A stretch of 64,000 nucleotides of DNA from assembly GCF_004010195.1 (NCBI RefSeq), contig NC_057718.1:71523486-71587485 (forward strand), read 5' to 3'. Below the pieces are notes generated by a model. It did no database searches. It was not told where the DNA came from and saw only the letters and a program-made list of their open reading frames with translations. Shown here piece after piece: positions 3,551-62,100 of the stretch. The stretch's first letter is position 1. Each line of letters begins with the position of its first letter. Both the position numbers and the translations under genes were made by a program. This DNA is from Chiloscyllium plagiosum. Taxonomy: Eukaryota.

Positions 3551-3711
3551 TGTTGTGGTTGTGTTTGCCAAGCTGGGAATTTGTGTTGCAGACGTTTCGT
3601 CCCCTATCTAGGTGACGTCCTCAGTGCTTGGGAGCCTCATGTGAAGCGCTTCTGTGATGTTTCCTCCGGCATTTATAGTGGTTTGAATCTGCCGCTTCCG
3701 GTTGTATATGT
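3551..3711 (-). mobile_element. Short PLE-terminal insertion (family C) carrying a hammerhead motif
   Basis: Flanked by the direct repeat TATGGCTTAT (3541-3550 and 3712-3721); hammerhead core on the minus strand. Confidence 0.7.
3588..3627 (-). ncRNA. Minimal type I hammerhead ribozyme motif (family C)
   Basis: Reverse complement: gca CUGAGGA c gucaccu agau aggggac GAAA CG UC ugc. Intact core, stem II, ACGU palindrome and stem I gca/ugc. Confidence 0.8.
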
Positions 3712-3862
3712 TATGGCTTATATTTTAAGTTTAATCAAGAGACTTATCTCCAAAAACATATAATCAAGAAAGAATTCACTATACTCACTACTGCAGCCTC
3801 TCTCTTGGACAGACTTAAAACAACAATGAACTTATCTGATTCTGTGCTGTGAACTTCACCAA

Positions 3863-4176
<314 letters not shown>

Positions 4177-4395
4177 CCAGCACTGTCCTCACCATGTTTG
4201 TTCTTCTCCCTTTTAAAACTGCTGTTGTTTTGATTTTTTTTTCCAAGTTCCAAAACAATGCAACAGCGTATAAAACAGTAATTGCTGCTCCTAGAATTCG
4301 AGGAAATCACCTCCAGCACCTAAAATACCTCAAAAAAAAGAGCAGCTCTTACAGCCAGAAATTTTTCACGTCCTCCATCTTGGATTACCCAGAAG

Positions 4396-4990: not shown

Positions 4991-4999
4991 CAAGCACAA

Positions 5000-5545: not shown

Positions 5546-6037
5546 TGGAGATGGCAGAGTTTAAAAGAATTGTGAGAGGCAGGTTTTCCATTCAAAAGTT
5601 GGTGAGTGCGTAGAACGCGTCCAGGGAAGTTATTTAGGTGGAACTGAGAAATAAGAAAGGGAAAGGGATGTTCACCGTATTGGGGTTGTGCTATAGACAT
5701 TCTGTCTCCCCTTCCCCCCCCCCCCCCCCCCCCCAAGTCAGTTGTAAATTGGAGAAACAAATATATAAGAAGATCTCTGCTATCTGTAAGAATAATAGGA
5801 TGGTAATGGTAACAGATTTTTTTTCTATAGATATTTTTATTAGAAATTTAACATTTTTACAAGTTTACAAAAATAAACAAAACTCTCAAGTACAAACATT
5901 GATATACAATTAAATCTTAAATATATAATAGCCAAAATTTAACAAAAGAAAAGATACAGAGAAAGGAAAAAAAACAAAACTCAACTAACGACTAATCTAA
6001 CCTACAACTAACCAGAGTGTATATTTAAGTCTCTTAC

Positions 6038-6317
6038 GGAGATGCCGGTGTTGGACTCGGGGGTACAAAGTTAAAAATCACACAACACCACATGAAAGAA
6101 GTGAAACTATCACTGTATTCTAACAGATGAAAGGCTTAACAGACAATCAATTCTTCAGTGTATAATTTCAGTTACATCACACTGCAAATTTTTGCTATAA
6201 ATTCTGTGTTACGATCGAGCCCTCCACAATCACCTGATGAAGGAATGTCGCTCCGAAAGCTAGTGTGCTTCCAATTAAACCTGTTGGACTATAACCTGGT
6301 GTTGTGTGATTTTTAAC
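6038..6317 (+). mobile_element. 280-bp PLE-derived insertion (family B) in the L1 3'UTR, with short inverted arms and a hammerhead motif
   Basis: 12-bp TSD TAAGTCTCTTAC (6026-6037 and 6318-6329); inverted arms AGTTAAAAATCACACAACACCA (6069-6090) and TGGTGTTGTGTGATTTTTAACT (6297-6318). Confidence 0.85.
6231..6265 (+). ncRNA. Minimal hammerhead ribozyme motif (family B)
   Basis: cac CUGAUGA a ggaau guc gcucc GAAA GC UA gug. Core intact, AGCU palindrome, one mismatch in stem II. Confidence 0.75.
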
Positions 6318-6489
6318 TAAGTCTCTTACATTATTCAAATAAGAGAGAGACAAAAAAACAACGGATAACATAGAAATTGAGTAGTGAGATACATGCTCGG
6401 AATGTGTTAACATCAAATGTAACAAAACCCGTATTCGTGCGGGATTCCTCTCCTAAGGGGCCCCAGACCAACTAGGTTCGTAATCTCAA

Positions 6490-9400
6490 TTAAATAAAAG
6501 CCCTTGTTAGGATAGCCGTAATATTTATGTAATTCAAAAAGGGCTGCCATATTATATAAAATAATTCGGTCTTTCGGTGCACCATATTTGTAAGGAAGTC
6601 AAGGGAAATACATTCCATAATTAATCTGTGCCAATTTGAAAGTTCAGGGGAGCCCTCAGCCACCCAGTTTACCAAAATATTTTTCCTTGCACAGAAAGAA
6701 AGAATAGAAAATAGTCTCTTCCCGTACGTGTCCAGGGAGGGAAAGTTCGAAAAGGCCAAAAGGAAAGATACAAGGTCCACTTTAATTTCCGTTCCTAGAA
6801 TTTCTGTCAGGGTACTTGCTACTTTAGTCCAATATCTACGGATCTTATGACAGGTCCATAAGCAATGTACAAGAGTGCCCACCTCTATTTGACATTTGGG
6901 ACACATTGGAGATGCTCCTGCCTTAAATTTTGCCAATAGATCCGGTGCTATATGGGCCCTATGAAGTATCTTCAGCTGGGTAGCCTGAGTTCTGTTACAT
7001 ATGGTAATTCTTCTAGTATTTTCCCAAATGTCATTCCATGTTTCTATAGAGGTTTCTAATCCCAAATCCTGATCCCATGTTTTAAGCGGATTGTCCATAT
7101 CTCCCGATACTTCATCATGTAGTAAATGATAAATAGTACTGATGGAGGATACCCCCATTGGTCGTAGCACTCTACATTCTCTATCTGATTTATAAAGACT
7201 ATCTAATAACATAGTCTTCTTCTGTATATAATCTCGAATTTGGAAGTATCGAAAGAGGTCTCCATTAGGTAATCCGAATTTCTGACGCAGCTGTTCAAAA
7301 GACATCAAGACCCCATCTTTAAATAGGTCCCCAAGACATGAGATACCCCTGGATCTCCAGAGTTTAAAAGTGGCATCTGTTAACTCTGGTTGGAATCCCC
7401 ATGCTCCCACTATCGGCGCATAGGGGGATGTTTTATGTGAGTTGCCCTCATTTTGCTGCATTATATTCCAAGCTTTAGTATTATAGGGTTTTTACAGTGA
7501 TCCGTAATGATTTTCCTCTTGTCTAAAAATAAAAGGTTAATAAGTGGGTATTTAACTTGAGAAGCCTCGATGTCCAGCCAGATTGATTGTGGATCAGACA
7601 AGACCCAATCAGCTATGTAACTTAATAGGGAACTTAACTGATATTTCCTAAAATCTGGGAAGTCCAATCCTCCCCTTGCATGTGGAAGCTGTAGCTTCTT
7701 CAGCTTAATGAGGGGCCGTCTATGATTCCAGATAAAGGAACCCAACCAGCCATATAATTTACGTAGTGCCAGCCTCGGCAGCATCACCGGAAGCATTCTC
7801 ATAGGGTGTAGGAGACGGGGCAGGACATTCATTTTAATTAGTGCTATTCTACCCAGCCAGGAAATTGGAAGGTCTCCCCATCGCTGGAGGTCCTGCCTTA
7901 TCCTTTCCAGTAAATGCACAAAATTAGCCTTGTACAACTGACCAAATACTGGGGTAATAAAAATGCCTAAATATAAGAAACCCTCCAGGGACCAACGAAA
8001 GGGAAAAGGGCATCTGTCCACTAAGTGGGGTATCATAGCAAGGCCACCCATTGGCATAGCCTCCGATTTTGAAAAATTAATTTTATAGCCTGAGAATGCG
8101 CTAAATGTATTAATAACTTGGATTAAGCAAGGTACGGACATCAGACGATTACTGAGGAATAGAAGAACATCTGCATAAAGGGTAATTTTATGTTGACCTG
8201 TACCAATCCTCAGGGCCGTTATATTAGGATCCGCCCGTATAGCTTCTGCTCGTGGTTCAATTATTAGCGTAAATAACAATGGCGAGAGCGGACATCCCTG
8301 ACGGCAGCCCCTACCCACACTGAAACTATCCGAACCTAATCCATTGGTAACCACAACTGCCTTGGGATCACTATACAATGTTGAGACCCTTTTGGTAAAC
8401 ACCTTTCCAACGCTAAACCTTTCCAATGTGTAAAACAAATATGACCATTCAACCCTATCAAATGCCTTTTCCGCGTCTAAAGAAACTACTACTCCTGGTA
8501 TCTTTCCCTGATGGCAGGCTTGAATCATATTCAAAACCCTTCTAATATTATTGAATGATCTACGGCCCTTAATAATCCCCGTCTGATCCTCCTTTATGAT
8601 ATGTGGTAGTACCCTTTCTAGTCTCAATGCTAACGTTTTAGAAAGGATTTTAAAATCTACATTTAGCAAGGATATTGGTCTGTATGACGTACAATCTTCT
8701 GATCCTTTCCTTTTTTAAGGATAAGAGAGATATTTGCCTCTTTCAGCGAAGGCGGGAGACAACCCTGACTATATGCATAGTTATACATGTCCATAAGTGG
8801 ACCAGCCAATAATTCTGTAAATTCTTTATAGAATTCAGCTTGAAAACCATCTGGGTCCGGTGCCTTACCGCTCTGAAGTTGCCTGATTGCATCAAGTATT
8901 TCTTGGACTGTTAGGGGAGCATTTAAGACCAATACCTGTTCCGGAGTTAGACCCGCAAAGGTCAAATTTTTTAAAAAATGATTGCATCCTCCTCGTCCTG
9001 TCTTCACAATCCTGCGATTTATATAAATCAGAATAAAATTTTCTAAAGATTGCATTAATCTTTTTATGATCATAAGTCAAAATACCCATACTTTCCTTGA
9101 TAGACTTAATAGTTTGAGGGGCCTTTTTTTTCTTTGCTAAGTATCTACCCGGTTTGTTGCCAAATTCATATAACCTTTGTTTTGCAAATAATATTTCCCT
9201 CTTAGCCGTTTGGGTAAGCGTAGTGTTTAGAGCTGTCCTAAAATCCTTTGCAATTTAATAATAGAAGGTCTTTCAGCGTATGCTGTTTCAGCTGCTTTTA
9301 AGCCAGCTTCAAGCAGACGCTGTTGTTCTCCCTTTAATTTTTTCTGGGTTGCTGAGTAGGAGATGATCAAACCTCGCGCGTAAGCTTTGATGGTCTCCCA

Positions 9401-10262
9401 CATCATTGATGGGTTGCTAGCCGTACCCAAATTAATTTCTAAAAAAGTTTTAAATTCTTGAGAGAAGTACTTTACAAATTTACTATCTTTCCATAGGAAG
9501 GGGTCCATACGCCAATGCCGAGGGGATGTCCCGTTGTTCCTCGCCTTGGTTTCCATATATACAGCAGCGTGGTCGGAAATTGCTATACTACCTATTTTAC
9601 AGGATGATATAGAATTTTTAAAAAATCAAGGGGGCAAAAAACATATCAATTCTGGTATGACATTTATGTGGATTGGAGTAAAAAGAAAAATCTCTGCCCT
9701 GTGGATGAAGACATCTCCATACATCTACTAATCCTAATTCTTTATTCCGATCCACCAATTGTCTAGATCTGGGAGATACTCCTGCAGTACTCTTGGGAAT
9801 CCTACCTATTTCCGGATCCATAATACAATTAAAGTCTCCCCCTATAATTATATGACGGGCATCAAAAACCATCAATTTTGAAAAGGCTTCCGTTATAAAT
9901 TTAAAGGGGTGTGCCGGGGGGCAGTACAAATTTAAAATCCCATATTCCTCTCCATTTATAAGGGCTTTAATCAAAATATATCGTCCAGATTCGTCTTTAA
10001 TCTGATTTAGGATTTTGAAAGGGAAATTCTTCCGAACAAGAATAACAACTCCCCTACTTTTTGAGCTAAAAGAAGAAAAAAAGGCCTGATCAAATCCACC
10101 ATGTCGAAATTTCAAATGTTCTTTATCCAACAGGTGTGTCTCCTGTAGGAGAGCTATATCAACTCTTTCCTTCTTAAGATTTGATAATATTTTCTTCCTT
10201 TTAACTGGCGAATTACTCCCCTTGACATTCCAGGTGCACCACTTAACTGACTGATCAACCAT
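6490..10262 (-). pseudogene. L1 ORF2p (APE endonuclease, RT, CCHC), split by several frameshifts
   Basis: TWNVKG, LQETHL, GGDFN and TRID (EN); KAPDPDGF, SLDAEKAFDRV, GCRQGCPLSPLLF and LYAD (RT); CPKC...HCLWTC (zinc knuckle). Confidence 0.95.
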
Positions 10263-11124
10263 AATCGTCTGGGCAAATCAGAGACCCCTCAGGAGGGGAA
10301 ACCCTATCCAGAACATCCCGAGCATAGAGCATATAAAATTCACAAAACTAAAGGCTCTCTAATACACTCTCAACAGTATAATAAAAAACTATTTCTAAAT
10401 AATAATAAAAAAAAATTTAAATGGAGATTTTCCCCCTTGTTCCCAGGGGGTGTCACTTCCTTTCTAAAGGTCCATCATATCCTCTCCTAACCAATGCCCC
10501 ACCCTTGACCCAGGCGCTCCTCAATAGAATGAGAGAATTCAGATATAATACAAAGCTAGAGTTAACAGTGAGCACCCTATCTCCAACACCTGGATATATT
10601 TGGTAGTGTTAATACCATGTATAAACATATATAACTATAAAATTACAACCTCAACAAATAATAATTAAATATACTAATACAAAATAACAAGGGAAAACAA
10701 CCCCGCTCCTAGAGACAGAGGTAAAATAGAATAAGGTAACCACCTCCCCCCACTAACATTAACCAAACACCCCAGTTTATTTTTATATATATATAACCCC
10801 AAGGGGGGGAGAAAATTGTCAAATAGAGAACAAATAAATAAATCCCTCTTCCCCCCCCCCCCCCGCCCCCCCCCAAGATAATATTAAACAGTAAGGTAAG
10901 AAAAAAGGGGGGGATATAAACCGGAGTGGGGGAAAGGCAAACCAATATCCATTATCTCTTACAATTTATCTAAGAGAGTCCAAAAATTCTTTAGCCTTTT
11001 CTGGCGATCCGAAGTTATACACGGATCCTTCATGGTTAAAGCGTAGCGTCGCTGGGTAGCGTAAGGAGTACTGAATATTTAAGTCCCTTAAACGCTTCTT
11101 CGCCTCATCGAATGCCTTCCTCTT

Positions 11125-11802
11125 TCAGACCAGAGCCGGGGAAAAGTCCTGGAATAACATGATCTTGGATCCTTTATAGATCATAGCTTGGGAATCTTTT
11201 CCAAGATTTCTAGAAGCTTCTAGGAGTATCTGCCTCTCCCTATAGCTCTGCAGCCGAAACAGGACCGGGCAGGGATGCTGGTTTGAGCCGGGCCTGCGTA
11301 TTGCGACCCGGTAGGCCCATTCCACCCTTACCTGGCCTGATCCAGCTTCCAGATTTAAAAGCTGTGGCAGCCATTGCTCGAGGAACGCTGTAAGCTGGCC
11401 TTCCTCTTCCCGTTCGGGAAGGCCCAGCAAACGAATATTTTTTCGACGACCTCGATTATCGAGGTCATCAATGTGATTCTCTAAGGTCCGGACTCGTTGT
11501 TCAAGAGTCCGGACCTGATCCACGGCCGATTGCACTGTGGTTTCGGAGGTCGCGGCCTTTAGCTCCGCCCCTCCGACTCGGCCCTCGATTTCTTTAATGT
11601 CTCGGTCGTGCCTTTGCAGCACGGCCGAGAGTGAGTCCCATCGACTTCGGGATTCTTCGATGAAAGTGTCGATCTGCGCATCGAGTTTAGAGATGATTTC
11701 CACGAGGCTCGCCACTGTAGGTAAGTCTCCAGCTGCAGCTGGAGAGGGTGGGGGAGGGGTTCCTGCTTGCTGAGAGCTGCGGGCTCCCTTCCGTTTGGTC
11801 AT
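11125..11802 (-). pseudogene. L1 ORF1p (coiled coil plus RRM), truncated by a frameshift before the C-terminal domain
   Basis: LENHIDDLDNRGRRKNIRLLGLPE...VEWAYRV...IMLFQDFS are L1 ORF1 (Transposase_22-type) motifs. Confidence 0.9.
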
Positions 11803-12620
11803 TTTTACTAAAGATTAGATTGAGTAAATTTAATACTAAGCAACTAATTAAATTAAACAGCTATTTTGAATGATTTGGTGAGTGTGGTGGGGGTGGGTGA
11901 CCCACTTTACCCAAGTCTTGGGAGGAGCACTGTCGACTCAGACTTGCTGGGTCGCCGCCAGCTTGGATCCCGGTAACAGATTTTAACTTTCGAAACACAG
12001 ACTGGGACTGCCATAGTGTTAAAGGCTTGGAAGGAGAGGAATTTAAGTGTGTACAAGAAATGTTTCTGATTCAGTATTTACTACAGAAGGTGTGAAAATT
12101 GACCTATTCTTGGAAAGTAAGGTAGGGTAGGTGATTGAGGTGTCAGTGGGGGAGCATTGTGGGGCCAGTGATCAATTCTGTTAATTTTAAAATGGTGATG
12201 GAAAAGGATAAAAGTTGAAGTTCTAAATTGGAGGAGGCCAAGTTTGATGGTATTAGGCAAGAATTTTCAAAGGTTAATTGGGTGCAGATGTTTGCAGGGA
12301 AAATGGGAAGCTTTCAAAAATGAGGTAACAAGAGTCCAGAGACATTGTGTTCCTGCTGGGATGAAAGGCAAGGCTGGTGGGCTTATGGAATGCTGGATAA
12401 TGAGAAATTGAGGTTTTGGTTAAGAAGGAAGGATACGTCAGGTATAGACAACAGAGATTGAGTGAATCCTTAGAAAAGTATAAAAACAGTATACTTAAGA
12501 GAGAAATCAGGAAGGGCAAAAAGGGGACATAGCTTTGGCAGATAGGGTTAAAGAGAATCCACAGGGATTCTATAAATACATTAAAGTCAAAAGGGAGAGA
12601 GTAAGGCCCCTTAAAGATCA

Positions 12621-13372
12621 TGTAAAACCTGCGCCCACACCACCTCCCTCACCTCTATCCAAGGCCCTAAAGGAGCCTTCCACATCCATCAAAGTTTTAC
12701 TTACACATCCACTAATATCATTTATTGTATACGTTGCTCCCGATGCGGTCACCTCTACATTGCAGAGAATGGGCGGCTCCTAGCAGAGCGCTTTAGGGAA
12801 CATCTCTGGGACACCCGCATCAATCAACCACACCGCCCCGTGGCCCAACATTTCAACTCCCCCTCCCACTTTGCCGAGGACATGGAGGTCTTGGGCCTCC
12901 TTCACCGCCGCTCCCTCACCACCAGACACCTGGAGGAAGAACGCCTCATCTTCCGCCTCGGAACACTTCAACCCCAGGGCATTAATGTGGACTTCAACAG
13001 CTTCCTCATTTTCCCTTCACCCACCTCATCCTAGTTCCAAACTTCCAGCTCAGCACTGTCCCCATGACTTGTCCGGACTTGTCCGACCTGCCTAGCTCCT
13101 TTTCCACCTATCCACTCCACCCTCTCCTCCCTGACCTATCACCTTCAACTCCTCCCCCACTCACCCATTGTACTCTATGCTACTCTCTCCCCACCCCCAC
13201 CCTCCCCTAGCTTATCTCTCCACGCTTCAGGCTCACTGCCTTTATTCCTGATGAAGGGCTTTTGCCCAAAACGTCGATTTCAAAGCTCCTTGGATGCTGC
13301 CTGAACTGCTGTGCTCTTCCAGCACCACTAATCCAGAATCTGGTTTCCAGCATCTGCAGTCATTGTTTTTAC
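12621..13372 (+). mobile_element. Penelope-like element 3' part (GIY-YIG region plus terminal repeat, family A)
   Basis: DNA at about 12710-12760 translates as TNIIYCIRCSRCGHLYI (GIY-YIG-type); ORF 12840..13034 has AQHFNSPSH...LEEERLIFRLGTLQPQGINVDF; hammerhead remnant at 13244-13279 with GAAA changed to AAAA. Confidence 0.88.
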
Positions 13373-13644
13373 CCCACAAAGATCAGCAAGGCTGCCCATG
13401 TTTTCTGCCCTGAAGAACATTAGTGAACCAGATGTGTTTTTCTAGCAATCGGGAAATGGGTTCACGGTCTTCATTAGACTCTTAATTCCAGATTTTTATT
13501 GAATTCAAGTTCTGTCATCTCATGGTGGATTTGAATCAAGGTCTCCAGATTAACAATCAGTGATAATACCACTCAGCCACTGCCTCCCCTTCTGCTTGTG
13601 ATTGGTGCAATTTTTAAAAAAGGGGACAATGTGGCCTTACTCAG

Positions 13645-13916
13645 AGTCCCTACAACATGGAAGCAGGCCATTTTGCCCATTTGAATCCATACCAACACTC
13701 TCAAGAGCACCCACCTCCACCCGCCCCAGTGCAATTTAGCATAGCCAGTCCACCTAACCTGCACAACTTTGGACTGTGGGAAGAAACTGGAGCACCCAGA
13801 GGAAACCCACACAGACATGGGGAGAACTCTGCACATAGTTGCCCAACGGTGGAATTGAACCCAGGTCCCTAATGTTGTGAAGTACCTGTGTTAACCACTG
13901 AGTCACCTTGCTGCCC
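13645..13916 (-). mobile_element. tRNA-derived SINE (HE1/V-SINE-like), diverged
   Basis: Reverse complement has CAGTGGTTAACAC...GGGTTCAATTCC and the central GTGTGGGTTTCCTCTGGGTGCTCCAGTTTC domain. Confidence 0.85.
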
Positions 13917-16900
13917 TATTGGAAGAACCTTCTAAGATATTATCTCATCTCATTATTGTAGTAATTGACTCATCATTCAATAAAATGACACTAGCTCTTT
14001 CATTTAACTCCCCCACACCCCACCCATGTCTTGTCTGAAGATTTTAAAGCCCAATAATTGAACTGCCAGTCATTACCTTCTTCAACCAGGCACTGTGCTC
14101 AAGACCATTAATAGATTAAGGACAAAAGGTAGCAAAGGAGAGAAGATCAGCAAGGCAGCTTATGTGTGGAACTGCAGGAGATGGAGTTAGTAAATGGGTA
14201 TTTTGCATCAGTGTTTACTGTGGAAAGGACATGGAAGATGCAAAATGTGGAGAAATAAATGGTGACATCTTGAAAAATGTCCTTATTACAGAGGAAGTGT
14301 TGTTGGATGTGTTGAAACACTTAGAAGTGTATAAAGCCCCAAGACATGACCAGGTGTCCCCTAGAACTCTGTGGGAAGCGATTGCTGGGCCCTTTGCTGA
14401 GACATTTGTATCCGGATGTCAGAGGTGGGATGCTGGAAGACAGGATGTTGGCTAACGTTGTGCCACTATTTAAGAAAGGTGGTAAAGAAAGGCCAGGGAA
14501 CTATAGACCGGTGAGCCTGACTTTGATGCTGGAGGGAATCCTGAGCGGCAGAATTTACATTTTTGGAAAGGCAAGGACTGATTAGGGATAGGCAGCGTGG
14601 CTTTGTGTGTGGGAAAACATCTATCATGAACTTGATCGAGTTTTTTGCAGAAGTAACAAAGAGGATTGAGGGCAGAGTGGTGGACGTGATCTATATGGAC
14701 TTCAGTGGTGGAAGGTTGCTTTTCAGACTGGACACCTGTGAGCCACAAGGATCGGCACTGGGTGCAGAACTAGAGGGCATAGGTTCAGGGTGAGAGGGGA
14801 AAGATCTAAAAGGGACATATGGGGCAACTTTTTTCACACACAGGGTGGTGTGTGTATGGAATGGCTGTCAGAGGTGGTGGAGACTCATAGAATTGCAGAT
14901 GTAAAAGGCACCTGGGAGGGTATATGAATAGGGAGGGTTTAGAGGGATTTGGTGTAAGTCCTAGCAAATGGTACGAGGTTAGGTTAGGATATCTGGCTTG
15001 CACGAGTTGAACTAAAAGGGTCTGTGGCCATGGTGTATATCTCTATGACTCTATAACTCCTCTGCCTTGCAATTTTCCATGCACTAAAATAATTGCTGTC
15101 TACCCTTACCATGCTCCCTTGTGGTTTAACATGCTTGCATGTATTCTTCCTTCAAGTCTGACTTAGTTTTTCCTCTGTTATTGTTTGTGGATCACTTTCT
15201 ACTATACCTCCATTCTATATCTCTCTCCCTTCCAAACTAGGTTAACCCTCTACCAAAAGCTCCAGTTCAGATACAACCTATTGGAGTACAGATCACATTG
15301 TTCTAGAAACCCCAGAAATGGATCCTGTGTTCCAAGAATTTTAGGCCCTTCCTGTGTGTCAATTACTCAGTCATGCATTCACCTGTCTACTCCTACACAC
15401 ACTCATATGTGGCACTGGGAGTAATCCAGAGATTACAACCTTCGAGAATCTGCTTTTCAATCTACTACCTAGCTCTCTCAATTCTTGTTTCAGAACCTCC
15501 TCCCTGTTTCGCCTACATTATTGGTATCTAATTACCAATCTAACTGCTCACCCTCTCCCTTCTAGAATGCGTTGCAGATATTCAGTGACATCATTAAACG
15601 TGGCCTGAGGAGGCTGGACTCTAGCTGCACTCCCCAAAGAATCTTATACTGTTTTTCAGCAGTGAAAAACTCTCTCTCTTTTTGCATGAGATGTACTTAG
15701 TGCTATCCTTGAAGATCTTGGCCCATGGGAGGGGTCCCTTGGTTCTGCAATCGGTCAAATAAGCACGCAATTTGGTTTGGTTCTGGAAGATTTCACACTT
15801 TATTATCACAGCCGTGCTCAGGTTGTTCAGCAACACGGAGGTTAAATGCTTCAGTGTTCCTTGGAGAAATTGTGCAAATGGCTTAAAACAAAGGCAATTT
15901 TTATACAGTGTTTGAAAAGTGGTGCCGCCTTAATTATTACAGAGCAAATCCAATAAAATTTAATAAAATGACATAATAGACATAAGGGTAATTCAATTAT
16001 ATTACCTGGGAACTAACATTGTTTTGCACATCTTATCTCTCGGCACCTGTATCTCCAAGGTTAGCTAGGATGGTTAGTAATGTCCTGTCTGGTTTAGTTA
16101 ATTCCATACTGTGAAAGAAGCATTATCTGCTATTCTTTGGTTCAGTTAGTTCAGGAATGCAGTTTTTAACAGGGTAAAAAGCCATTTTAAACAAAGTTGT
16201 CAATTTGCAGCCTAGAAGCCATTGTTATGTTACTTTGTTACTTGCATTAAGAAGCCATTTTGTTGTGAGTAAGGGCATGTATTAGATGCTTGCTCCTGAT
16301 AATAGCCTAAATCCAGATTTTAGATCCTCATCCTGACTACCTGACTGTCTCTTTTCTGACTGGTACTTGAGTGAAGTTTTGCATATACTTGTGCTGGAAA
16401 CACACAGTTTTTATCCAAAGAGATCATTGGGATATCTATTGCTTAAGTGCAGTAGTGAGAATTTTTTTCCTGTCAACATTATGGTTGTATTTCTATTATG
16501 GTACAGGTTGTTTCAAAGTTTTTAAAGTGCTTACTTTTGGCATACAACCTAAAATATGTCAACTGTGACAATGCCATTGCAATGTTTGGCATTGGATTTT
16601 TAAACACTCTTTTTTAATGACGTGCATACTAGACTCAGGGTGAAGGTTAGAGCACGTGGAATTGAGATGAGGAACAATACGTATAACAAGCATTGACAAA
16701 ATAGAGGTTGATAAGATCTTTCCATTCATGGATGAATTTTGAACTCCAGGACATGGTTACAGAATTGAGAGACAATCTTAAAACTAAAATGCAAAGGAAT
16801 TTATTCTCCCACAAAATAGAAAAATTGTGGAATTTTCTACCCCTGAAATTTGTGGAGGCTCGATCACTGAAAGTATTTAAATAAAAAATAAATTCTTGAA

Positions 16901-17142: not shown

Positions 17143-17172
17143 ATGACGAATGAAGAACCTCTCCCAAAGAAG
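17143..17172 (+). CDS. WTAP: WTAP first coding exon (exon 2; exon starts at 17135 with 8 nt of 5'UTR), MTNEEPLPKK
   Basis: Acceptor ccttttcttttcag|ATACCAGA ATG with A at -3; donor AAG|gtaagc. Contributes the first half of the basic PKKVRL NLS-like motif. Confidence 0.96.
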
Positions 17173-50100: not shown

Positions 50101-53100
50101 ACTTATCTAATTGACATCCTTCATATACAATTCAAAAAATCTGCCTGGTGTGTAGCTGAAATCAGTGTTACAAGTAGATTTCAATTTTGTGTATAAATTA
50201 TGTTGTTTCTTTATAAAGTACTATTTCAAAATAAATTGCTTGGGCACTGTGAAAATTAGATCTAGTCTCTTTCAAACAATGTGACAGCAGTTGTGCACTA
50301 AATCATAGCTTCAATTTCTCAGTTAAGCACGCAGACAATCTATTTTCATGGAAATGAAATGCTAAGTAGGTGCACCGCACCATTTGTTTTATTTCTTTTA
50401 CTGAACTCCCAGTTCCTTAAACAAAATACCTCAACTACAGGAGTTTGAATATTTGTGTCAGAATACATGCTTAGATTGCATTTTCTTAAAAATGTATTTT
50501 AAGAAGTTTGGTCCAGCTTGAGGCATTAAGATGTTATGATGACTGAGAAATTTTAATATTGTGACTTCCTAACTTTTCTGGTCACCAACCCACTGGGAGG
50601 AAAGTAATTACATAATGAAGTCCACAAATTGTAGTTTTTTTTGTATTACGATGTTTTTCCAAGTTCTCATTGTAAAGCTCAGAGTGAAATTTGCTGGTAA
50701 AAATCTAACCATATTAGCCTATTTTCATATTGTGGGACATATTCAATTTTATTGTTCAGTATTTTGTATATTTTTAATATTGCAGGATGACCTGTTTCAG
50801 TAAAAAGGAAATTTCACATACTTTTTAAAACTGCAAAACTAAATTTCTTGTTTGGTGAAATGTTTGTGTTGCATCAGTCTGTACCAGTGAATTTGAAGAT
50901 CAAACTGGTAGAGGTTAATTCAAGTCAGTGGAATGAATATTTTAAACAATATTATCACAAAGTAGCACTTTTTGGTTTTCCTTTAAGCCTCCATTGATCA
51001 TGCCATGCTCATTTTCCAAAGAACTATGTTTACAATTGCTTTAATGCGCATTCCCAAGACCATAGCATTTGATCACATTTGATCCCAGCTTTCAAATTAT
51101 ATCTGATTACTAACAATGTGGGAAGCCTTACCTGAGCCATGCAGGAATGGGTGTGTCTTTAATTTTATGCTAAAATAGTGTTTCAAGTTTTATGAATTTG
51201 TAAAATTTTCATTTTTTAATTATGTCTTGTGTCACAGTTTAGACGTGTTGTGTAAAATAAGAATTGTGTAGTTATGTGTGGTTATTTGTTATTATGCATT
51301 AATTGTTGATAGTACTTCTAAATGTAGAAGAGAAACTGTTACAGACGGCACGACAGATGGTCTGAGATGAAGTTCAGGCCATGACCTAAATCTTTTTATA
51401 CCAAAGTATTTTGGAAAGACTGTTAAAGCTGGTGATGGATGTTATTTCAACAATGTCAGTTTCTTAAAAATTGCTGTTGTGAAGGGGGGTAGAAGCACAT
51501 ATTTCATCGGCAATTCAGTGACAGCTTTAACTGTTTTATTTGATCCTTATTTTGAAGTCCTATAGGAATAGGCTTACAATATAGCATTATCTCCTACCTG
51601 TATGGTTTGTACAAATCCTAATTTAACGTTTAAATTACTCGGAGCTGTGCATTGCTTTTGATCCATCCTTTGAAAGTATGGTCATGCTTTAACTTTTTTG
51701 GAGGTGTGGGGAATGGAGAAAACAGAATTGCATTGACTATCTTCCATTCTGCCTATATATTGTACATTTCTGCACCACTGACACCATCATTTGAGGGTAT
51801 GGTTATGCTTTTTTTTCTTGGAGGTGCAGAGCAAGGACATAACAACAGAAATTTTTATTTTGAACTGACTGTCTACCTTTTATAATGTACGTTTCTGCAC
51901 TATTGGGTAATAGGAGCTCAGTTCCTGTGCTTCTAAAATTGTCAGCACTCAACTATTTGGTGCCTTTGTAGTTTTCAAGTATAATTGCATGGACTCAGTA
52001 GACTTTGAAAGCCTTAAAGGCAGTTACCACCATTTTTTTATGCGTGTGGATTGAGAGAAGTCTCCTCAACCTGTTCGACAAACTTTGGAGATTTTGTCAC
52101 TATTCTTGGTTCTTTGTTACTTTCATTGCCCGCTTGTTTTACTTCCACTGTAGAAACATTTCTAGTTTAAAAATATGAGAAATATATTGGGTCACCTGAA
52201 CAATTTATTGTTTTCTGTTTTTCTTTGTTTTAAGTTGCATAACTGTTGTACATTCTAAGACACTAACAGCGTTCTGTCTGCTTGGGTTGAAATTTGTTCT
52301 TCAGATGTGATGGTCTTCCATTGATCATTATAGGCTTCATGGCCAAGTCTAAACCTGTTGCTATCCTTATCCAGTGTACATGCAGACCCATTTCAACATA
52401 TGATACTGTATAATCAGGAGTGAGTGCTTCAATCTGATTTATCCCTTTTTACAAGGTTCAGTCTAAAAAACATGAGCTTTTGGCCAATTTTTAGTAATGT
52501 ATCATCCTGGCCAAAATCAGTTAGGTTATTACAGCCCTGGGATCAAACGTGGGATGGTGATTTGAATACCACAGAGTATTTGAGACCTTTGAATAATTAT
52601 TAATTGAGTTGGGACTGTTGTTCTTTTATCATGTCGATGACATTTTTATTTATTTCCCTCTCTTGCGGTCAGATTTCAGCTGTATAAACTTGTATTTTTT
52701 GTTTAACTGGCGATATGCTTAATCAAATTAAGATTATACCATGATGCATGAGAACTCTGGATATACTAATTTGGTATAAGTTCAGCGCTACAATCACATC
52801 TTCTGCTGGAGCTGGTTGACATTTGCTTCCAGAGCATCACTTTTATTTTCAAAAAAAAGACTTCATGCAAAACATTTTAAATAGTAAGGTTTTAACAGGG
52901 GGTTTGAAAGAAATCATACATTTAAAATAGAAGAAGCCAAGTCAAAGTGGCTGAAATACATTCGACTAGAAATGTTCGGGCTTTAATAGCATGTGTGGTG
53001 ATTCCATTTTGTGAAGAATTGTCATTTCTCTCTGTGATGGTAAGTGTCTGTCTTTACAGCCAAACGGGGAAAAAGTTGATGGCCAAATGTCGGATGTTAA

Positions 53101-56100
53101 TTCAGGAAAACCAGGAGCTAGGAAGACAGCTGTCCCAGGGACGTATTGCACAACTGGAGGCTGAATTAGCTTTACAGAAGAAGTACAGTGAAGAGCTCAA
53201 AAGCAGTCAAGATGGTGAGTGGAAGTCAGTTCTTGACTACATTTGTTGGAAGGAAATACATTCTTTCAAAGTAGTGCTTTCTATAACACATATGGTAATC
53301 ACTTGTCATTTTAATGGGTAAAGACAAGGTGTGTTTTTTATACTTGGGACCCAACTCCATCTCTCCTATCTTTCTCGACTGTACTCTTGTTGAACTTCCA
53401 GACTGCTCAACCAACATCCAGTTGAACAAAATTTACGCAATGTAAAAAGAGTCATTTTTGGGTCTTCACTCCAAACTGTGATCCAGAGGTGACCACCTAG
53501 ATGTCCTAGGGATCCTCTCCCTGACAACAGGTCTGAGCTTAGTATCTGTTCTAAGCCTTTATCATATTTGACCCATGGATGAGCTTATGATCCAATTTGC
53601 ATTATCACTAAGACTGCTTGTTACCACCTCCGCAACGAGGTCTTACTTTGTCTGTCTCCACTTCTCTGTTCCAGAAATTACATTTATATCTTCTTTGTCT
53701 CTAGATCAGACTATTCCAATACATCTTTGACTGATCTCCCATATTTCACCCTCCATAAACTTGACGTTATCCAAACGCTGCTGCCCGTGACTTCACAATC
53801 AACCCATACTTGATGTATGATGTTATCCAGTCAAGTAATGCTTAATTTTAAAATTCTCATCTTTGTTTTCAAATCCCTCCTCTTCAAAGGGGAATACAGT
53901 AGAAATGCTGACAATTGCCAGTTCCTCTGACCACAGGAGAGATGCCAGAGGACTGGAGAATGGTCAGTGTGGTACATTATTCAAGGAATAAACCTGGAAA
54001 CTGCAAGCTAGTCAGTCTAACCTCTGTGATAGGGAAAATATTGGAAACAATTGAAACATAATTAATCTGCACTTGGAGAGGCATGGATTACTCAAGAATA
54101 CTCAACATGATTTTGTTAAGGGGAGGTCATGTCTAATCAACTAGTTTGAATTTTTTTTCAAAAGAGGTGACCAAATGAATAAATGAGGGCAATGCATCTG
54201 ATATAGTTTACTTGGACTTCAGCAAGACTTTTGATAAGGCCCTATATGGGAGACTGGTAGCAAAAGTAAGAGTCAATGGGATCCAAAAAGATTTGACTGA
54301 ATTTCCAGAATTTGGTGAGTGTAAGGAATGATGGTTGAGGTATTTTTGTGATTGGACTGTCCAGAGGGGTTCAGCAGAGATCAGTGTTGGGACTGATTTG
54401 TGGTATATATAAATGATTTAGACTTGAAGGTAGGAGGGTTGATCAGTAAATTCACGGGTGATATGTGAATTAGTGGATGGTAAATATTGAGGAGGATAGC
54501 CTTGGAATACAGAAGGGTACGGATGGGCTAGTAAGACGGACTGATCTTGGAATTCAGTCCAAGTATGAGGTGATGCACTTAGGCAAGAAAAATGAGACCA
54601 GGCACGATGAACATTCGGAACCTGGGCAGCACCAAGGATCAGAGGGACCTTATTGCGCATGTTCACTGGTTTCGTAGGGTTATGGGACAAATAATTGAGT
54701 CAGGTGAGATGCTTTGACCTTATTAGTCGAGGCATAGAGTTTAAGTGCATGGAGGCTAGGCTGGAACTGTTGAAAAATGGCTAGGCCACAGCTGGAGTAG
54801 TGTGTTTAGTTCCAGAATGCACATAGGGATATGATTGCAGTGGAGAGGGTACACATGAAATTTACCAGATAGATCCCTGAGATGCAGAGTTTTATTTCTG
54901 AAGAGATTGTTTGGATTGGAGTTGTTTTCCTTGGAGCAATCTTGAAGGGGTATGATTGAGATGTGTAAAATTGAGGAGCATAGACAGGGTAGACAGGGAG
55001 GGACATTTCCTCTTTGGAGGGATCAGTAATTGATGCCATAGATTTAAGGTAAAGGGCAAGAAGTTTGGGGAGATGAAGAAAACGTTTTGATCCAGAGAAT
55101 GTTTGAATCTGTGTAGTGTGACATCCGGCCATTTGGCCCATCAAGTCCACATCAAGGGATGATCTTCAGTTTGTGGGGTTAGAAGAGATTGTAAAGAAGG
55201 GAGTCATAGAAGTCAACAGTACAGGAGAAAATGTCTTCAGACCAAAGAGTCAATCCCACCCACACCCATAATCCTGCATTTCCACTGGCTAATCCACCTA
55301 GCCTGCACCTCTCTGGCCACAATGGGCTATTTAGCATGGCCAATCCGCCTAACCTGCACATCTTTGGGAGGAAACCAGAGCACCCAGAGAAAACCAGTGC
55401 AGACACGAGAATGTGTATGGCGTTTACACAGTCGCCTGAGGGTGGAATTGAACCCAGATAGCTGCTGCTGTGAGGCAGCAGTGATAACCACTGAGCCACT
55501 TTGCTGAGAGTGCTGGCATTCTGGAACTCACTGCCTGTAAGGGTGATAGAGGCAGGAACCTTCAATATTGAAGTTTTTAGATATGTACTTCCAGTGCCAA
55601 GACATACAAGGCTATGGGTCAAGTGCTGGAAAATGGGATTAGAATAGTGAAATGGTTGTTTTTGACTGGCATAGACTCTCTGATCTAAAGGACCTTTCTG
55701 CTGTACTGTAGACCTCTATGACTCCCTCCTTTGCAACCTCTTCTAACCTCTCAAATCTACAACAGCTGTGTCCCTCGTGTTCTGAACTCTTGAGTTTGCT
55801 TGATTTAGTTAGTTTCTCTAATTGTGGCTGGTGCTTTCAGTAAAATAAACCTTAAACTCTGAGCCCTCTCTTGTCCCACCCCTCTTGTCTTTCTTCATCT
55901 GATGTGATTTGTAAGGTATGGTGGTATATTTTGTTTAATGCTGCTTCTGTGAAGTGCCTTGGAATGTTTTATCATGCTAAAGTACTATATAAATGTAATT
56001 TGTTTGAAATTTAGTTCCATTTTGCTCTACAGACGTTTTGCTCATATCAATTAAAGAAATGCCAGCTTGACAATGCATTTCTGACTCAGAGGTTGAGGAC

Positions 56101-59100
56101 TAAAGCACCCTATCCAGTACTGTGGAATGTTGCATTATTAGAAGATCATCTTTTTAGTGGTGTGTTAAGAGACAGTAACCATTAAGTTACTGAAAGACCA
56201 TGTGGTGCTGTTCTGAAGTGTAAATAGTTCTGCAAATATTCCCCTCATCTACTTCAATCAGTTGCTATTTGCAGAACTTGGAACTAAATCATTATATTTC
56301 TTTGTCTAAAAATGCTACAGAAGTAAGTAATAAATATTAAACTGATATTCGGTGAAGTTGAATGAAGTAATGAGAGAGCATAATTTGCATACATAGTAAC
56401 TTTTGGATCCTGAAGATTTATTCAACTGCAGGTTGGCTTTTTCCCAGAACTGGGAATAAATTGCATCCTGTTGAACCAGACAGAAAATGAGAGAAAATAA
56501 GCTCAGAAATGAGGGATTTTTGAATAAAATCTTTCATTATCATAAGATACTGTAATATATTAAAATTCTTATTACCATTGATGTAGTTTGAGACAAATAT
56601 TTCAGTCTCCCGGAAATTTACTTCGTATCCTGCCAAAATGGTTCATCGTGGATGACGAAAGTCCTACAGTCTGTCTTCATAAACAGTTATTCTGCCATTA
56701 GTATGCATTGGTTTCCTGATCTTTTACAATGACTAAAGCTCATTAAAAAAATAAATTACAGCCACATTTAATTAGGGAAAGCCTGGGTTTATATTGGCCA
56801 GATCGTCCTTAGCCTTTTTTTTTGATAATGTTGGGTTAGACTAAGGAAAATGATGTTACAGATAAATTTTCAAAAGACCTTTTGTATTCATTTGGATGTG
56901 GATGTCACTCTCATATCAGCATTTATTGTATGAGGACAGTTAAGAGTTGACCACATTGCTATTAGTGTGGAGTGACATCTAGCCAGACCAAGTAGAGACA
57001 ACAGCTTCCTTTCCTAAAAGACACTGGTGAACCAGAAGGGTTTTTCCAACAATTGATGATTTTGTGATCATCTTGATTCCAGCACTCTTATCAAATTCAG
57101 GACCTCAATATTTTGTCAGTCTCTCGATTAGTAGTCTCGTGATAATACCATTAGGCCATTGCCTTTCTTAAAGCATCACAGAAAAATTTGTTGCCAGAGG
57201 TTTATATCACGAAAGGCACTACAGCTGCAGAGGTCTGGAGATGACATCGAATTGGAAAACAGTAGAATGGAAACTAAACGGCATGATACTGGAAATCTGA
57301 AGTAAAACCAAAACCCATTGACAAATGTGGAGAGAGAAGCCAAGTTAATGTTTTGAGTTAAATATGACTCTTTTGAAGAGTGAAGAGATGTAGGTGCTAG
57401 TGTACTCTGGGTTCTCAGCTGGAATCTCTTTCTGATGTACCTATATAAGTAGCATTGATGATAAGCATGGAAGGCGTTCCATTAAATTTACAAATTACAA
57501 AGCTGCAGGACATGCTTGCTGTCAATGAGAAATGTCTGCAATTTGGCAGAATTCAATTTTTTTGGATCACAGAGTTTCATCTTTTCCATTTTCTTTACAA
57601 CTTCTGGCTCACATTAGCTGCTGCCCATTTTCAAGTGCCAGTGTGGATCCAATGGTATCAGAGGTAATGTTTTGACGTGGTTAGAGAATTAGGCAAAAGT
57701 GACGACTGAAGATGCTGGAAATCAGAGTTTAGATCAGAGTGGTGCTGGAAAAGCACAGCAGGTCAGGCAGCATCAGGGTGGAGAAATAAATGGGGGGGGG
57801 GAGAAAGGTAGCAAAGAGTCTTCAGAGCAGAGGAGATGATCTGGGGGTTGCAGTGAGAGAGACTCACTGAGATTCTTGTGGAGAGAGGAGGAGAACTTCT
57901 TCAAGGTAGGCATCCTTGCAAGAGGATTTGCAGTAAGGTTAAAATCAACTGGAGAATTGATTGGCTGACAGAGCAGAGAATTGGAATAAATGGGTCCTTT
58001 TCAAAGTGGCAGGCAGTGACAAGTGGGGTGCTGCAGGGTTCAGTGCTGGAACCTCATCTGTTCACAAATGCATTAACAACTGAGACAAAGGAATTGAATG
58101 CAATATTTCCAAATTTGCAGATGACATTGAGCTGGGTGGCAGTGTGTGCTGTGAGGAGGATGCTGGCTCAGTAGGCAAATACTTGGCAAATGCAGTAAAA
58201 TGTGGATAAATATGAGGTTCTCCATGTTTTTGGCTGCAAAAGCAGGAAGACAGATCGTTAGTGGCAGCAGTTCAGGGAAAGGTGAGATGCAACGAGACCT
58301 GGGTGTCATGGTGGAGCTGTCACTGAAGGTTGGCATGCAGATGTAGCAGATGGTGAGCAAAGCTAGTGGCATGCTGGCCTTCATAGCAAGCTGATTTGAG
58401 TATCAGAATAAGAATTTCTTGCACTTTTCCAGGATCTTGGTAAGGCTACACCTTGAGTATTGTGTGCAGTTTTGGTCTCCTTGTTTGAGGAAGGACATGT
58501 TTTGCTATTGAGGAATTCCAGCAAAGATTCACTAGATTGAAGCCTGGGTTGGCAGGAATGATGTGAGGAAAGTCTGGATCCACTGGGCTTGTACTCATAT
58601 AGGAATTTAGACGAAAGAGGGTGGGAGGGGTGGGGTGGAGAGTCTCTCAGAAACATATACAATCCTGATGGGACAGGACAGGCTAGATGTGGGAAGAATG
58701 TTCCCAAGTTGAAGTCCAGAACTAGGGATCACAGTCTAAGAATAAGGGGTAAGCCATGCAGGACTGAGATGAGGAAGAATTTCTTCACTAGGAGTTGTGA
58801 ACCTGTGGAATCCTCTTCATAGGAAACTGTTGGGGCCAGTTCATCAGATATTTTCAAGAGGAAGCTGAACATGGCCCTTGCCGCTAAAGGGATCAAGGGG
58901 TATAGAGAGAAAGCTGGAATATGATACTGAGATTGCTTGATCAGCTAGACTGCTATTAAGTCTTAGTCACTTAGAATGGTAAATGATTAAGAATTAATAG
59001 CAATCTAGGTTTGTTCAATTTATCACATCAGTTGTATGACACTTTGATGTTTTGCTATAAATTCTGTGTCCTATGATCCTGCCCCACTAGCTACCTGATG

Positions 59101-62100
59101 AAGGAGCAGTGCTCCGAAAGCTTGGACTTCCAAATAAACCTGTTGGACTATATCCTGGTGTTTGATTTTTAACAAGGTATTTTCTAAACAACCTGTTCAG
59201 AAATATTATTACAATGGTCTGGAGCAAATGGGACTTGAACCCAAGTCTCCTGGCTCAGAAGTACAGCTGCTACCACTGTGCCACAAGAGCCATTGATTCT
59301 CAGGATAGATGTTTTTAATCAACTGTTGAGAATGTTCTTCAAGATAGTATCACAGACCCAGCCATCTTTGCTTCGTCAGTGATTGTCCTTCCATCATGAA
59401 GTCAGAAGTGGGGATATTTGAATAAATTAGACTGAAGGTACTGGACATTGTTCAGTATTGCACTTGTAACATTTGTGCCACACAAGCCCATACAAGAGCA
59501 TCTCCAACAAGAGAGAATCTAATCATCCACTCTTGCTATTCAATAGCAGAGCCCTCTCTAAATCCCTGCAATCAATATGTGGGGATTACCATTTACTAGA
59601 AACTAAACTGAACGTCTAATTACTGTTCCTACAAGAGTAGGTCAGTCAGAAAATTCTGCAGCAGGTTCTCATTTGTTGTCCGAAAGCCTGTCCAATATTT
59701 AAAAAGGCCAAGAGTGTGGTGCTGGAAAAGTGCAGCCGGTCAGGCAGCATCCATGGAGAAGGAGAATCGACGTTTCTGAATTCCTGAAGAAAAGCTTTTG
59801 CCCAAAACTTAGATTCTCCTGCTCCTCGGGTGCTGCCTGACTGGCTGTGCTGTTCCAGCATCACACTCTTAACTCTGATCTCTAGCATCTGCAGTCCTCA
59901 CTTTCTCCAATATTAAAATGGTCTGAGTCTGAAATCTGATGTTATAATCTGCACTTTCTTGATTAATGTCAGTCCAATAACATTAGAGAAGCTCATCCTG
60001 CTTGATTGGTACTCCATCCGCCATCTTTATTATTCACTCCCTGGACAGTCCATGAAAAGTGGCAGCAGGGTACAGTATATTCAGTTACCACTGCAGCTAA
60101 GCCTATTTTTAACAGCATCCAAGCCTTCAATCTCTCCCATCTGGTAAGTGTAAATCAACTGACGTGTGGATCTGGAATTTTCCCTACCAAGCCGCCCAAA
60201 CTTTGAACTGTATTGCCTTTCCTCCTGTTTCAAAATCCTGGAACCACATGCCCTCCAAACCTTCTGTTCCTTACGTTAAATCTATGTCTGTTGTCATTGA
60301 TTCCTCCACCAACAGAGTTTTTTCCAGCCTACCCTAATTGTGCACCTCACAATTTTATATAACTTAAGGAGTAAATGAAAAGGAAAAATAAAGAATTTGC
60401 CAGTTCAGTGGCTTCACGATGGGTATTATCCTTCAGAACATAGAACATTGTAGTGCAGTACAGGCCTTTGGCCCTCACTGTTGCACCGACCTGTGAAACC
60501 AATCTGAAGCCCATCTAACCTGCGTTATTCCATTTTCATCCATATGTCTATCCGATGACCACTTAAATGCCCATAAAGTTGGTGCGTCAACTACAGTTAC
60601 AGGCAGGCTGTTCCACGCCCTGAGTAAAGAAACTGCCTCTGACATCTGTCCTATATCTATCGCCCTTCAGTTTAAAGCTATGTCCCCTCGTGCTAGCCAT
60701 CACCACCTAAGGAAAAAGGCACTTGCTGTCCACCCTATCTAACCCTCTGATTATCTTACATGTCTCAATTAAGTCACCTCTCAACCTCCTCTCTAATGAA
60801 AACAGCCTTGAGTCCCTCATGCTTTTTACATAAGACCTTCCTTCCATATCAGGCAACATCCTAGTAAATCTTCTCTGAACCTTTTCCAAAGCTTCCACAC
60901 CCTTCCTATAATGAAGTGACCAGAACTGTATGCAGTGCTCCAAGTGAGGCCACACCAGAGCTACAGCATGACCTCATGGCTTTGAAACTCAATCCCTCTA
61001 CTAATAAAAGCTAATACACCGTATGCTTTCTTAACAACCCTATTTACATGGGTGGTAACTTCCAGGGATCTGTGGACATGGATACTGAGATCTCTCTGCT
61101 CATCTACACTACCATTAGCCCAGTACTCTTTATTCCTGTTGCTTCTTCCAAAGTAAATCACCTCTCACTTTTCCGTATTAAATTCTTATTTGCCACCTCT
61201 TAGCCTAGCTCTGCAGTTTATCTACGTCCCTCTGTAACCCACAACATCCTTCGGCACTATCCACCACTCTACCGACCTTCGTGTCATCCGCAAATTTACT
61301 AACCCATCTTCCTACGCCCTCATCCAGTTAATTTGTCCTTGAACAGTATGTTGTATTCTAAGTGTACGTCTTGCTTGAATTTGAGTTACCGATTCATGCA
61401 GACAACTTCCACGGACAGCTGGAGACTTCTACTTATGTCTTATAGATGTGTTTTTTTTTCTTCAAAACCTTTCAATAGTTCTTTAACTGGGTTAAAACTT
61501 GGGAGAGTAAAATTCAAAACAGCTTCCAGTCTAGCAGCTTCTGCATGCTCAGCCTTCTGCCCAAAACCCAGAATGAATCAATTCAAACTATGGTTTCTTT
61601 TTCTTTTCCAACGTTTGACAACACTGGTCTGTCCTGATAGACCTATTCAGCATCCAATCAGCTGCCAATCTCTGAGTGCACATCTCTGTACTGAAATAAA
61701 TGGTGTTTTAGGAGCAGTAATGAACCTCCAATTATTTCTCCTGGCCAGTTCCTGTAAACAAACATCAGTTTGGACATTTTTACTCCCTTTCCAAAACAAG
61801 TTGTTCTCAAAGCTATCAATGTTCAATACTCAAATCCAAACCAAAATTGAGAAGAATAAAAGCAAAATAAAGGTCTCAACAAACTTGTAAGTATTAGTGT
61901 TCTCTAGCATCTGTTGCCCTTGCCCCTCTGGGTAATAGAGGTTGTTGGTTTTGAAAGATATCTTCAAAAGAGGCTTGGTAAGGAACTGCATTGCTTCTTG
62001 TGGATGGTTGATACCCTGTGATGGGGTGGCAGTTGAGTGGGTTGTTTTGCTCTGGATCATGTTTTGTTGGAGCTGCACCCATCCAAGTAATGAGTATTGC

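Follow-up and report, generated by a model that had tools for sequence, protein, structure and literature searches.

Minimal hammerhead ribozymes of Penelope-like elements (PLEs) have been known as a class since 2014. According to the available excerpts of the literature, their helix III is vestigial and palindromic, and they cut weakly as dimers (PMC4209133, PMC6765202). For a PLE of the green anole, the excerpted text reports that the reverse transcriptase (RT) starts internally at the tail, that unprocessed RNA is the main template, that both target strands are used, and that the ribozyme cuts with the help of protein (PMC11167929). The role of PLE hammerheads in vivo was called a mystery in a 2020 review (PMC7761336, in excerpt), and 126,247 canonical hammerhead motifs were counted in the axolotl with other descriptors (PMC7229834, in excerpt). 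Here, we analyzed a 64,000-nucleotide stretch of the shark Chiloscyllium plagiosum (NC_057718.1, positions 71,523,486 to 71,587,485; hereafter the window), which contains a WTAP locus and for which an earlier note had proposed hammerhead motifs of PLE origin. We conclude, with a probability of roughly 0.8, that these motifs are minimal type I hammerheads in the pseudo-long terminal repeats (pLTRs) of three PLE lineages, present mostly as insertions that are damaged and 5'-truncated and that probably serve no function for WTAP.

All 11 proposed motifs were found at their claimed coordinates and strands when the sequence was read directly. Within a motif, position 0 is C3, the base that opens CUGANGA. 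Five motifs belong to family A, four to family B, and one each to C and D. The earlier note had distinguished four families with wholly different stems II. Families A and B were indeed distinct, while C and D can be aligned across the motif together with its flanks on either side and constitute a single lineage, leaving three lineages in total and no complete difference in stem II between C and D. Judged from sequence, the shark families show every sequence feature of the minimal hammerhead class. Helix II opens with G10.1-C11.1 after one unpaired base, with G-U common there through CpG decay, and helix III is the palindrome ACGU or AGCU, broken in the motifs at 34435 and 35762. The CUGANGA...GAAA...UH core is kept in seven of the 11 motifs, and five match CTGANGA-N11-21-GAAA(CG/GC)TH, for which the reversed-pattern rate predicts about 0.03 matches per 64 kb.

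Only two motifs are fully intact (3588-3627 and 44083-44117, both on the minus strand), and neither is sense in WTAP. The remaining nine are damaged. Four carry core mutations, in agreement with their earlier description as mutated, damaged or degenerate (13244, G12>A; 46857, G12>C; 47809, U4>A and no stem I; 59781, G12>A), and in five a stem or the palindrome is disrupted (6231, 34435, 35762, 46967, and 59092). Minimum free energy folding recovered stems I and II for both intact copies, which is no evidence of catalysis. A strict stem descriptor matched one of the 11 motifs in the window, compared with one match in 30 shuffles; this descriptor is too tight, and the bulged stem of family C escapes it. 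The Rfam models suggested as a check did not detect the motifs: there was no hammerhead among the seven matches obtained for the window at E ≤ 10 (Rfam 15). Two of these, MIR171 and mir-2756, turned out to be merely the head-to-head insertions described below.

We scanned the 3.556-Gb assembly, using reversed patterns as controls. The pattern CTGANGA-N11-21-GAAACGTH gave 167,821 matches against 1,299 in the control, and its AGCT version gave 51,297 against 228. The exact core-plus-palindrome total of 219,118 (control, 1,527) is a 143-fold excess and corresponds to one match per 16 kb, or about 60 per Mb; the suspected very large hammerhead population does exist. Exact family patterns yielded 13,972 matches for A, 15,499 for one B subfamily, and 8,801 for C, and the C/D length class yielded 26,506 against 127 in the control. 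In an unselected sample, made up of 100 10-kb stretches placed at round coordinates on 13 large contigs (968,576 non-N bases), we observed 65 strict matches and no control match. By homology, the same sample contained 123 A and B copies spanning the motif, 74 of them core-intact and 39 fully intact, and about two thirds damaged. This equals one copy per 7.9 kb, which is close to the earlier estimate of one motif per ~6 kb, and extrapolates to roughly 450,000 copies, 140,000 of them fully intact. Rarer core-plus-palindrome motifs with unrelated stems II, possibly from further PLE families, were seen at G000:C1:178889-178916, at C1:402530-402557 (-), and in L123.

The fold was examined in 30 C/D loci found without a stem constraint together with the two window copies, giving 27 distinct rows. 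Paired cells amounted to 91.4%, compared with 27-44% in slid controls. The outer pair of stem I was GC in 11 rows, CG in 10, UA in 3, and UG in 2, and one pair of stem II was CG in 12, UA in 7, and UG in 7. Compensatory changes in stems I and II, which the earlier note had proposed to look for, are present among the C/D subfamilies. One stem II position of family C is an A.G mismatch. Among 94 family B copies, a stem II pair was GC in 77 and AT in 5, and stem I consisted of two pairs and a U.U mismatch, the latter in 69 copies. As also anticipated, non-CpG core positions deviated less from the group majority than the flanks did (B, 3.3% vs 6.4%; A, 3.8% vs 10.1%), in a comparison biased by an alignment selection that favours intact cores. 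CpG core positions of these two groups decayed at 15% and 38%, copy decay being fastest at CpG. The catalytic positions, the palindrome, and the UH site are common to the three lineages despite their differing stems. This pattern fits selection on past master elements, followed by neutral decay after insertion.

Remnants of a GIY-YIG endonuclease or an RT were detected upstream of every family, in line with the proposed PLE origin. For family C, locus L075 has a decayed and gapped RT-like plus GIY-YIG-like frame between two direct hammerheads spaced 2267 bp apart. RT followed by a C-terminal GIY-YIG in one open reading frame (ORF) was encountered in this decayed copy, GIY-YIG being recognized by visible motifs and, for family B, by ESM Atlas. 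For family B, the endonuclease end lies directly upstream of the motifs at 13244 and 35762 (12615-13034 and 35346-35760, respectively). For the remnant at 12615-13034, the third match in ESM Atlas, at 0.96, is a GIY-YIG cluster with PF01541 in 63% of its members; at locus L071, two B motifs enclose an RT piece matching a frame positive for Pfam RVT_1. In five family A loci (L001, L006, L007, L022, and L158), the endonuclease C-terminus is found 498-746 nt upstream of the motif. For family D, four of the 14 loci tried have the endonuclease about 394 nt upstream, and a fifth has it at 656 nt. A and B may be Neptune elements and C/D Penelope/Poseidon elements. A CxxC precedes the family B endonuclease and none is present in C; a Zn-finger-like linker is described as a Neptune feature in the excerpt of PMC8557442.

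The insertions themselves also have the arrangement of PLEs. Target-site duplications of 10-15 bp were found at five of the 10 window insertions examined, and three motif-bearing insertions in the window are head-to-head; both are described for PLEs in the available parts of PMC8557442 and PMC3846280. Direct repeats resembling partial tandems with pLTRs occur at L075, L078, and L071. The 3' ends of family A form two clusters, at about +85 and +122, and the copies are nested truncations of one pLTR with common 3' ends, reaching back into the endonuclease ORF. Fourteen regions built from paired matches as candidate full-length A or B elements were rejected, being inversions, nested or gapped; among paired-match candidates, a near-whole (decayed) element was obtained for family C only. 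As separate observations, PLE stubs are often nested across families, as at L059/L060, L034, L066, and L236 (B and C inside A), suggesting a shared target preference, and the family A insertions at L081 and L091 each comprise two long arms arranged head to head, with about 1.1-1.2 kb between the hammerheads and 3' non-coding regions rich in CA.

The positions at which copies begin point to the template that was copied. When copies were anchored by their downstream sequence, 5' ends fell at -14 to +8 in 95 of 164 family B copies and in 25 of 51 family A copies, and over the next 38-41 positions in 35 B and 16 A copies. Among the 120 edge-starting A and B copies, the upstream DNA was an inverted copy in 62 and unrelated in 58. 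A splice acceptor located at this edge, like that of D. virilis, was rejected, as a shared upstream exon was seen in 0 of these 120 copies. There was no peak at the predicted cut: of 30 B truncations selected between +24 and +33, two begin at +28, each at an inverted junction, and the 100 listed B truncations of this range appeared flat by eye (roughly 11 at +28; neighbours 6-12). The corresponding search in family A returned 1,341 matches contaminated by long mutated copies and was not used.

Many of these junctions carry an additional base. In the first 100 of 3,293 non-template matches in family A, read by eye, the base before A(-8) was G in 67, T in 23, and A in 10, and one base further up it was G in 17, T in 65, and A in 18 (first 100 of 2,727, by eye); the G:A contrast between the two positions was significant (Fisher p=3e-5). 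In family B, the base before A(-4) was G in 66 and A in 34 (first 100 of 8,622), with genome frequencies of 20.5% G and 29.6% A. Both starts, A(-8) and A(-4), fall on a pyrimidine-purine step. Reverse transcription that runs across a cap characteristically leaves an extra G. The short copies of A and B probably mark the start of the element's uncut RNA, with the extra G likely reflecting a capped start, and those of family A probably also mark its polyadenylation site.

RNA reads were taken from one single-cell poly(A) sample, of which 2% was read, and were pooled over many genomic copies. Reads of family A, displayed on window positions 6040-6330, were strongly stranded in the hammerhead sense. 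Poly(A) began at 6291 in 308 family-wide reads and at 6294 in 389, that is, 12-15 nt after ATTAAA (6274-6279) and before a GT-rich stretch. This ATTAAA begins 11 nt past the predicted cut site, placing the poly(A) site about 30 nt past the cut, and one of the hexamers AATAAA and ATTAAA occurs in 25 of 30 unselected family A copies. The family A poly(A) signal is used in this sample, on RNA with an uncut motif: depth showed no step at the predicted cut (943, 994, and 1112), and there was no pile of starts or ends. Cutting is compatible with these reads, because they pool many mostly single copies and short products are lost. Family B reads formed no start or end piles, and nothing on the start site or on cleavage follows from them.

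The individual insertions of the window illustrate these features. The family C stub, about 3550-3705 on the minus strand, is flanked by a 10-bp target-site duplication (3541-3550 and 3712-3721) and is likely of Poseidon type, going by its motifs. It contains the intact hammerhead 3588-3627(-), with stem I GCA/UGC, the palindrome ACGU, and a predicted cut after GUC; a long (TTTC)n microsatellite at ~3850-4190 adjoins the insertion. At 6026-6329(+), a family A insertion with a 12-bp target-site duplication combines an inverted tail (6038-6090) with a forward pLTR piece (6089-6318). Its hammerhead (6231-6265) has an intact core, an A.C mismatch in stem II, and a predicted cut between 6262 and 6263, and it is followed by the poly(A) signal region 6274-6294, at whose positions 6291 and 6294 the matching reads are polyadenylated. 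The family B endonuclease remnant at 12615-13034(+), called by ESM Atlas with Pfam silent, has the CxxC just before the motif; the hammerhead behind it (13244-13279, +) is dead through G12>A, and the tail extends to ~13372.

Further along, a family D stub at 34380-34480(-), bearing a 14-bp target-site duplication, holds a motif without stem I whose palindrome is broken to AUGU (34435-34468, -). The family B copy at 35346-35843(+) carries the frameshifted GIY-YIG remnant and a hammerhead (35762-35797, +) with the palindrome broken to ACAU. Two insertions are absent from the earlier list: a family A copy with most of its hammerhead deleted (37513-37703, -) and a family B tail lacking a hammerhead (57704-57774, -). 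The family A stub at 44030-44191(-), antisense in a WTAP intron, holds the intact hammerhead 44083-44117(-), with stem I CAC/GUG, AGCU, and a predicted cut after CUA. A head-to-head family A pair with a 12-bp target-site duplication (46755-47065) includes a dead motif (46857-46891, -, G12>C) and one with a stem II mismatch and an extra A before stem I' (46967-47002, +). Two family B insertions are head-to-head: 47711-47915, with a 15-bp target-site duplication and a dead motif (47809-47836, +; U4>A, no stem I), and 59720-59892, with a motif inactivated by G12>A (59781-59810, +). Between the family B tail at 57704 and the last insertion lies an older family A copy (58989-59173, +), sense in the last WTAP intron, whose hammerhead (59092-59126, +) has a stem I mismatch and H17=U. 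It retains AATAAA at 59133-59138 and could act as an intronic poly(A) site.

Other repeats in the window include a PLE-type RT fragment at 658-1404(+), which matches the RVT_1-positive frame of L066 at 78%, sits inside a CR1/L2-like LINE, and is cut off at the assembly gap 1405-1961. At 6490-11814(-) there is a long LINE-1-like element with frameshifts, recognized by visible motifs (ORF1-like frame, endonuclease, and RT). An abundant repeat resembling a short interspersed element and unrelated to the hammerheads occurs at 13691-13919, 24052-24288, 28470-28706, 33122-33360, 38416-38644, 44259-44561, and 48033-48266. The gene itself was identified, as earlier proposed, by matches to WTAP Pfam PF17098 at 48743-48943 and 53058-53213 on the plus strand. 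Its coding span (17143-63472, +) is that of a bystander, with exons near 17143 and 31920, at 48746-48925 and 53061-53213, and at 62872-63472; the two 5' exons were placed by means of short peptide motifs. Eight motifs lie between the start-codon exon (~17143) and the last coding exon (~62872), and three lie upstream of the start codon. Five are sense in WTAP introns, all of them damaged, and the only intact intronic copy (44083, -) is antisense. The location within WTAP looks incidental, and nothing points to a WTAP-specific role.

Several results weigh against our interpretation. Both-side changes in the C/D alignment affect two of nine pairs, a number reached by 121 of 500 shuffles, and the covariation tally counts sequences, not events. 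Pfam made no GIY-YIG call on the endonuclease fragments, a PDB sequence search with an endonuclease fragment returned nothing relevant, no intact full-length element was recovered, and the clade names are based on motifs. Regarding the start of the RNA, C/D copies mostly extend further up and do not begin at the hammerhead edge, and a few of the "unique" B upstream flanks resemble diverged subfamilies, among the matches listed. About 10 of 16 A and 7 of 16 B G-junctions are inversions, at which the inverted arm may supply the G, five solo B cases have the G inside the target-site duplication, and solo copies show only a weak G excess (B, 12/37; A, 5/13). Cleavage products of 30 nt would escape the poly(A) sample, in which starts do not pile up, and for family B the reads map to either strand and the loose ends displayed include no poly(A) site.

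Given the brevity of the motif and the silence of Rfam, one might suspect that a short, degenerate pattern was matched by chance. This explanation has already been refuted by the 143-fold genome excess, by the 65 matches against 0 in unselected DNA, and by the 80-400 nt flanks that copies have in common; its residual probability is negligible. A more serious alternative, compatible with a PLE origin and in our estimate unlikely, holds that the motif is kept mainly as a structured 5'-end or protein-binding element (a promoter, a leader, or a handle for a ribonucleoprotein) that seldom if ever cuts in vivo. In the genome, 5' ends avoid the cut site, with the two B truncations at +28 both inverted junctions, polyadenylated reads span the uncut motif, and 69 of 94 B copies have the U.U mismatch in stem I. 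Excerpts of earlier work add that cleavage is dispensable in vitro and that no RNA-seq reads end at the site (PMC11167929), and that activity is low even as dimers (PMC4209133). Against a purely structural role, catalytic positions, palindrome, and UH site persist across three lineages with differing stems, the non-CpG core deviates less than the flanks (with the selection bias given above), and the anole PLE ribozyme cuts with protein (PMC11167929, in excerpt).

Two other proposals concern what the copies do. The short copies could be an independent non-autonomous family, resembling retrozymes or short interspersed elements, that spreads through self-cleaved, circularised RNA. The very high numbers of 90-130 bp copies, occasional short tandem copies (L083; C1:2619545/2619751), and PLE-derived tandem retrozymes in one chondrichthyan (2026 preprint 10.64898/2026.07.22.740005, in excerpt) speak for such a family. 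We consider it improbable: the copies are nested truncations of one pLTR with common 3' ends that reach back into the endonuclease ORF, they start at the hammerhead 5' edge or further up and not at the cut site, and the window copies are all single or head-to-head. Among the 11 window motifs there were no head-to-tail arrays; a genome-wide tandem search was not made. Even less probable is that some copies are host-adopted regulators of WTAP pre-mRNA acting through cleavage or intronic polyadenylation. Five motifs are sense in WTAP introns, the last intron holds 59092(+) with its AATAAA retained, the signal of family A is in use elsewhere, and amniotes have conserved hammerheads in introns (PMC6155905). 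However, each of the five sense copies is damaged, the only intact intronic copy is antisense, and the motif density of the window matches the genome average.

For the preferred reading, pLTR hammerheads of PLEs, we propose the following course of events. In active tandem elements, two hammerheads would pair via the ACGU or AGCU palindrome and cleave weakly, probably assisted by protein; based on the literature, we regard this step as reasonably probable. Transcripts of A and B would start 4-8 nt above the core. With slightly less confidence, though still in its favour, we suggest that A and B stubs arise when reverse transcription starts internally at the tail, 75-125 nt past the core, and often stops at the capped 5' end, leaving an uncut hammerhead in each. 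Priming at the first tail would give cDNAs of 90-130 bp that end at the RNA 5' end, and it is because these cDNAs stop there that stubs would have their size and nearly every one its hammerhead. Priming on two strands or fold-back may produce the head-to-head pairs. The family A repeat would also end transcripts at the poly(A) site ~30 nt past the cut; because this site lies before the tail, longer family A copies would need read-through transcripts. The ribozyme's own job may be the occasional processing of tandem transcripts. Cis dimer cleavage is unavailable to nearly all copies, which are single or head-to-head. Taken together, the Neptune-type hammerhead might form part of a unit resembling the retroviral R region, with a capped start 4-8 nt before the core and, in A, polyadenylation ~30 nt past the cut, and priming at the first tail on uncut 5' ends might have seeded more than 200,000 core-intact motifs. 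We put this synthesis forward tentatively, as somewhat less probable than its denial.

If it is true, tens of thousands of portable poly(A) signals have been seeded, at a motif density above any printed count found, and the function of PLE hammerheads becomes testable from junction statistics combined with 5'- and 3'-end sequencing. The hundreds of thousands of natural insertion junctions reveal the RNA template: for the most part uncut RNA whose end lies at the ribozyme 5' edge or above it, in agreement with what was found in vitro for the anole element. Wherever family A copies sit sense in introns, their poly(A) signal could shorten host transcripts. PLE specialists should find the copy number and the junction statistics useful. 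In the literature searched, we found no paper on a cap-derived G or a poly(A) signal at PLE hammerheads and none on shark PLE hammerheads, families that may be catalogued in Repbase or Dfam; the searched supplement table of Cervera and De la Pena 2014 (PMC4209133), as far as it was available, contains no shark term.

The comparisons that follow refer to the available excerpts of the cited sources. The shark motifs resemble the minimal hammerheads of metazoan PLEs (PMC4209133) in their type I core, the one unpaired base between 9 and 10.1, G10.1-C11.1, the palindromic 15.2-16.2, the short helix I, and the location in pLTRs, and likewise occur mostly as single truncated copies and as opposite-strand pairs 100-700 bp apart. 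They differ in number, with 219,118 here against ~4,000 in the coelacanth and ~9,000 in Xenopus, counted with differing descriptors. The palindromic vestigial stem III near PLEs is shared with the small dimer-cleaving hammerhead variants of Lunse, Weinberg and Breaker 2017 (via PMC6765202 and PMC7761336). Poseidon_Ac (PAc) of the green anole (PMC11167929) is similar in its pLTR hammerhead, its fixed 3' ends at two tail positions, and the lack of any sign of templates cut at the hammerhead; a 5'-edge pile-up with an extra G and a poly(A) signal behind the ribozyme were not encountered in the account of PAc, and the comparison is one of sequence data here with biochemistry there. Non-LTR retrozymes (PMC7229834; 10.64898/2026.07.22.740005) also have type I hammerheads, a PLE derivation, and very high copy numbers. 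Theirs are head-to-tail arrays that give rise to circular RNAs, often with canonical loop contacts, whereas the shark copies are dispersed, truncated or inverted pLTR ends.

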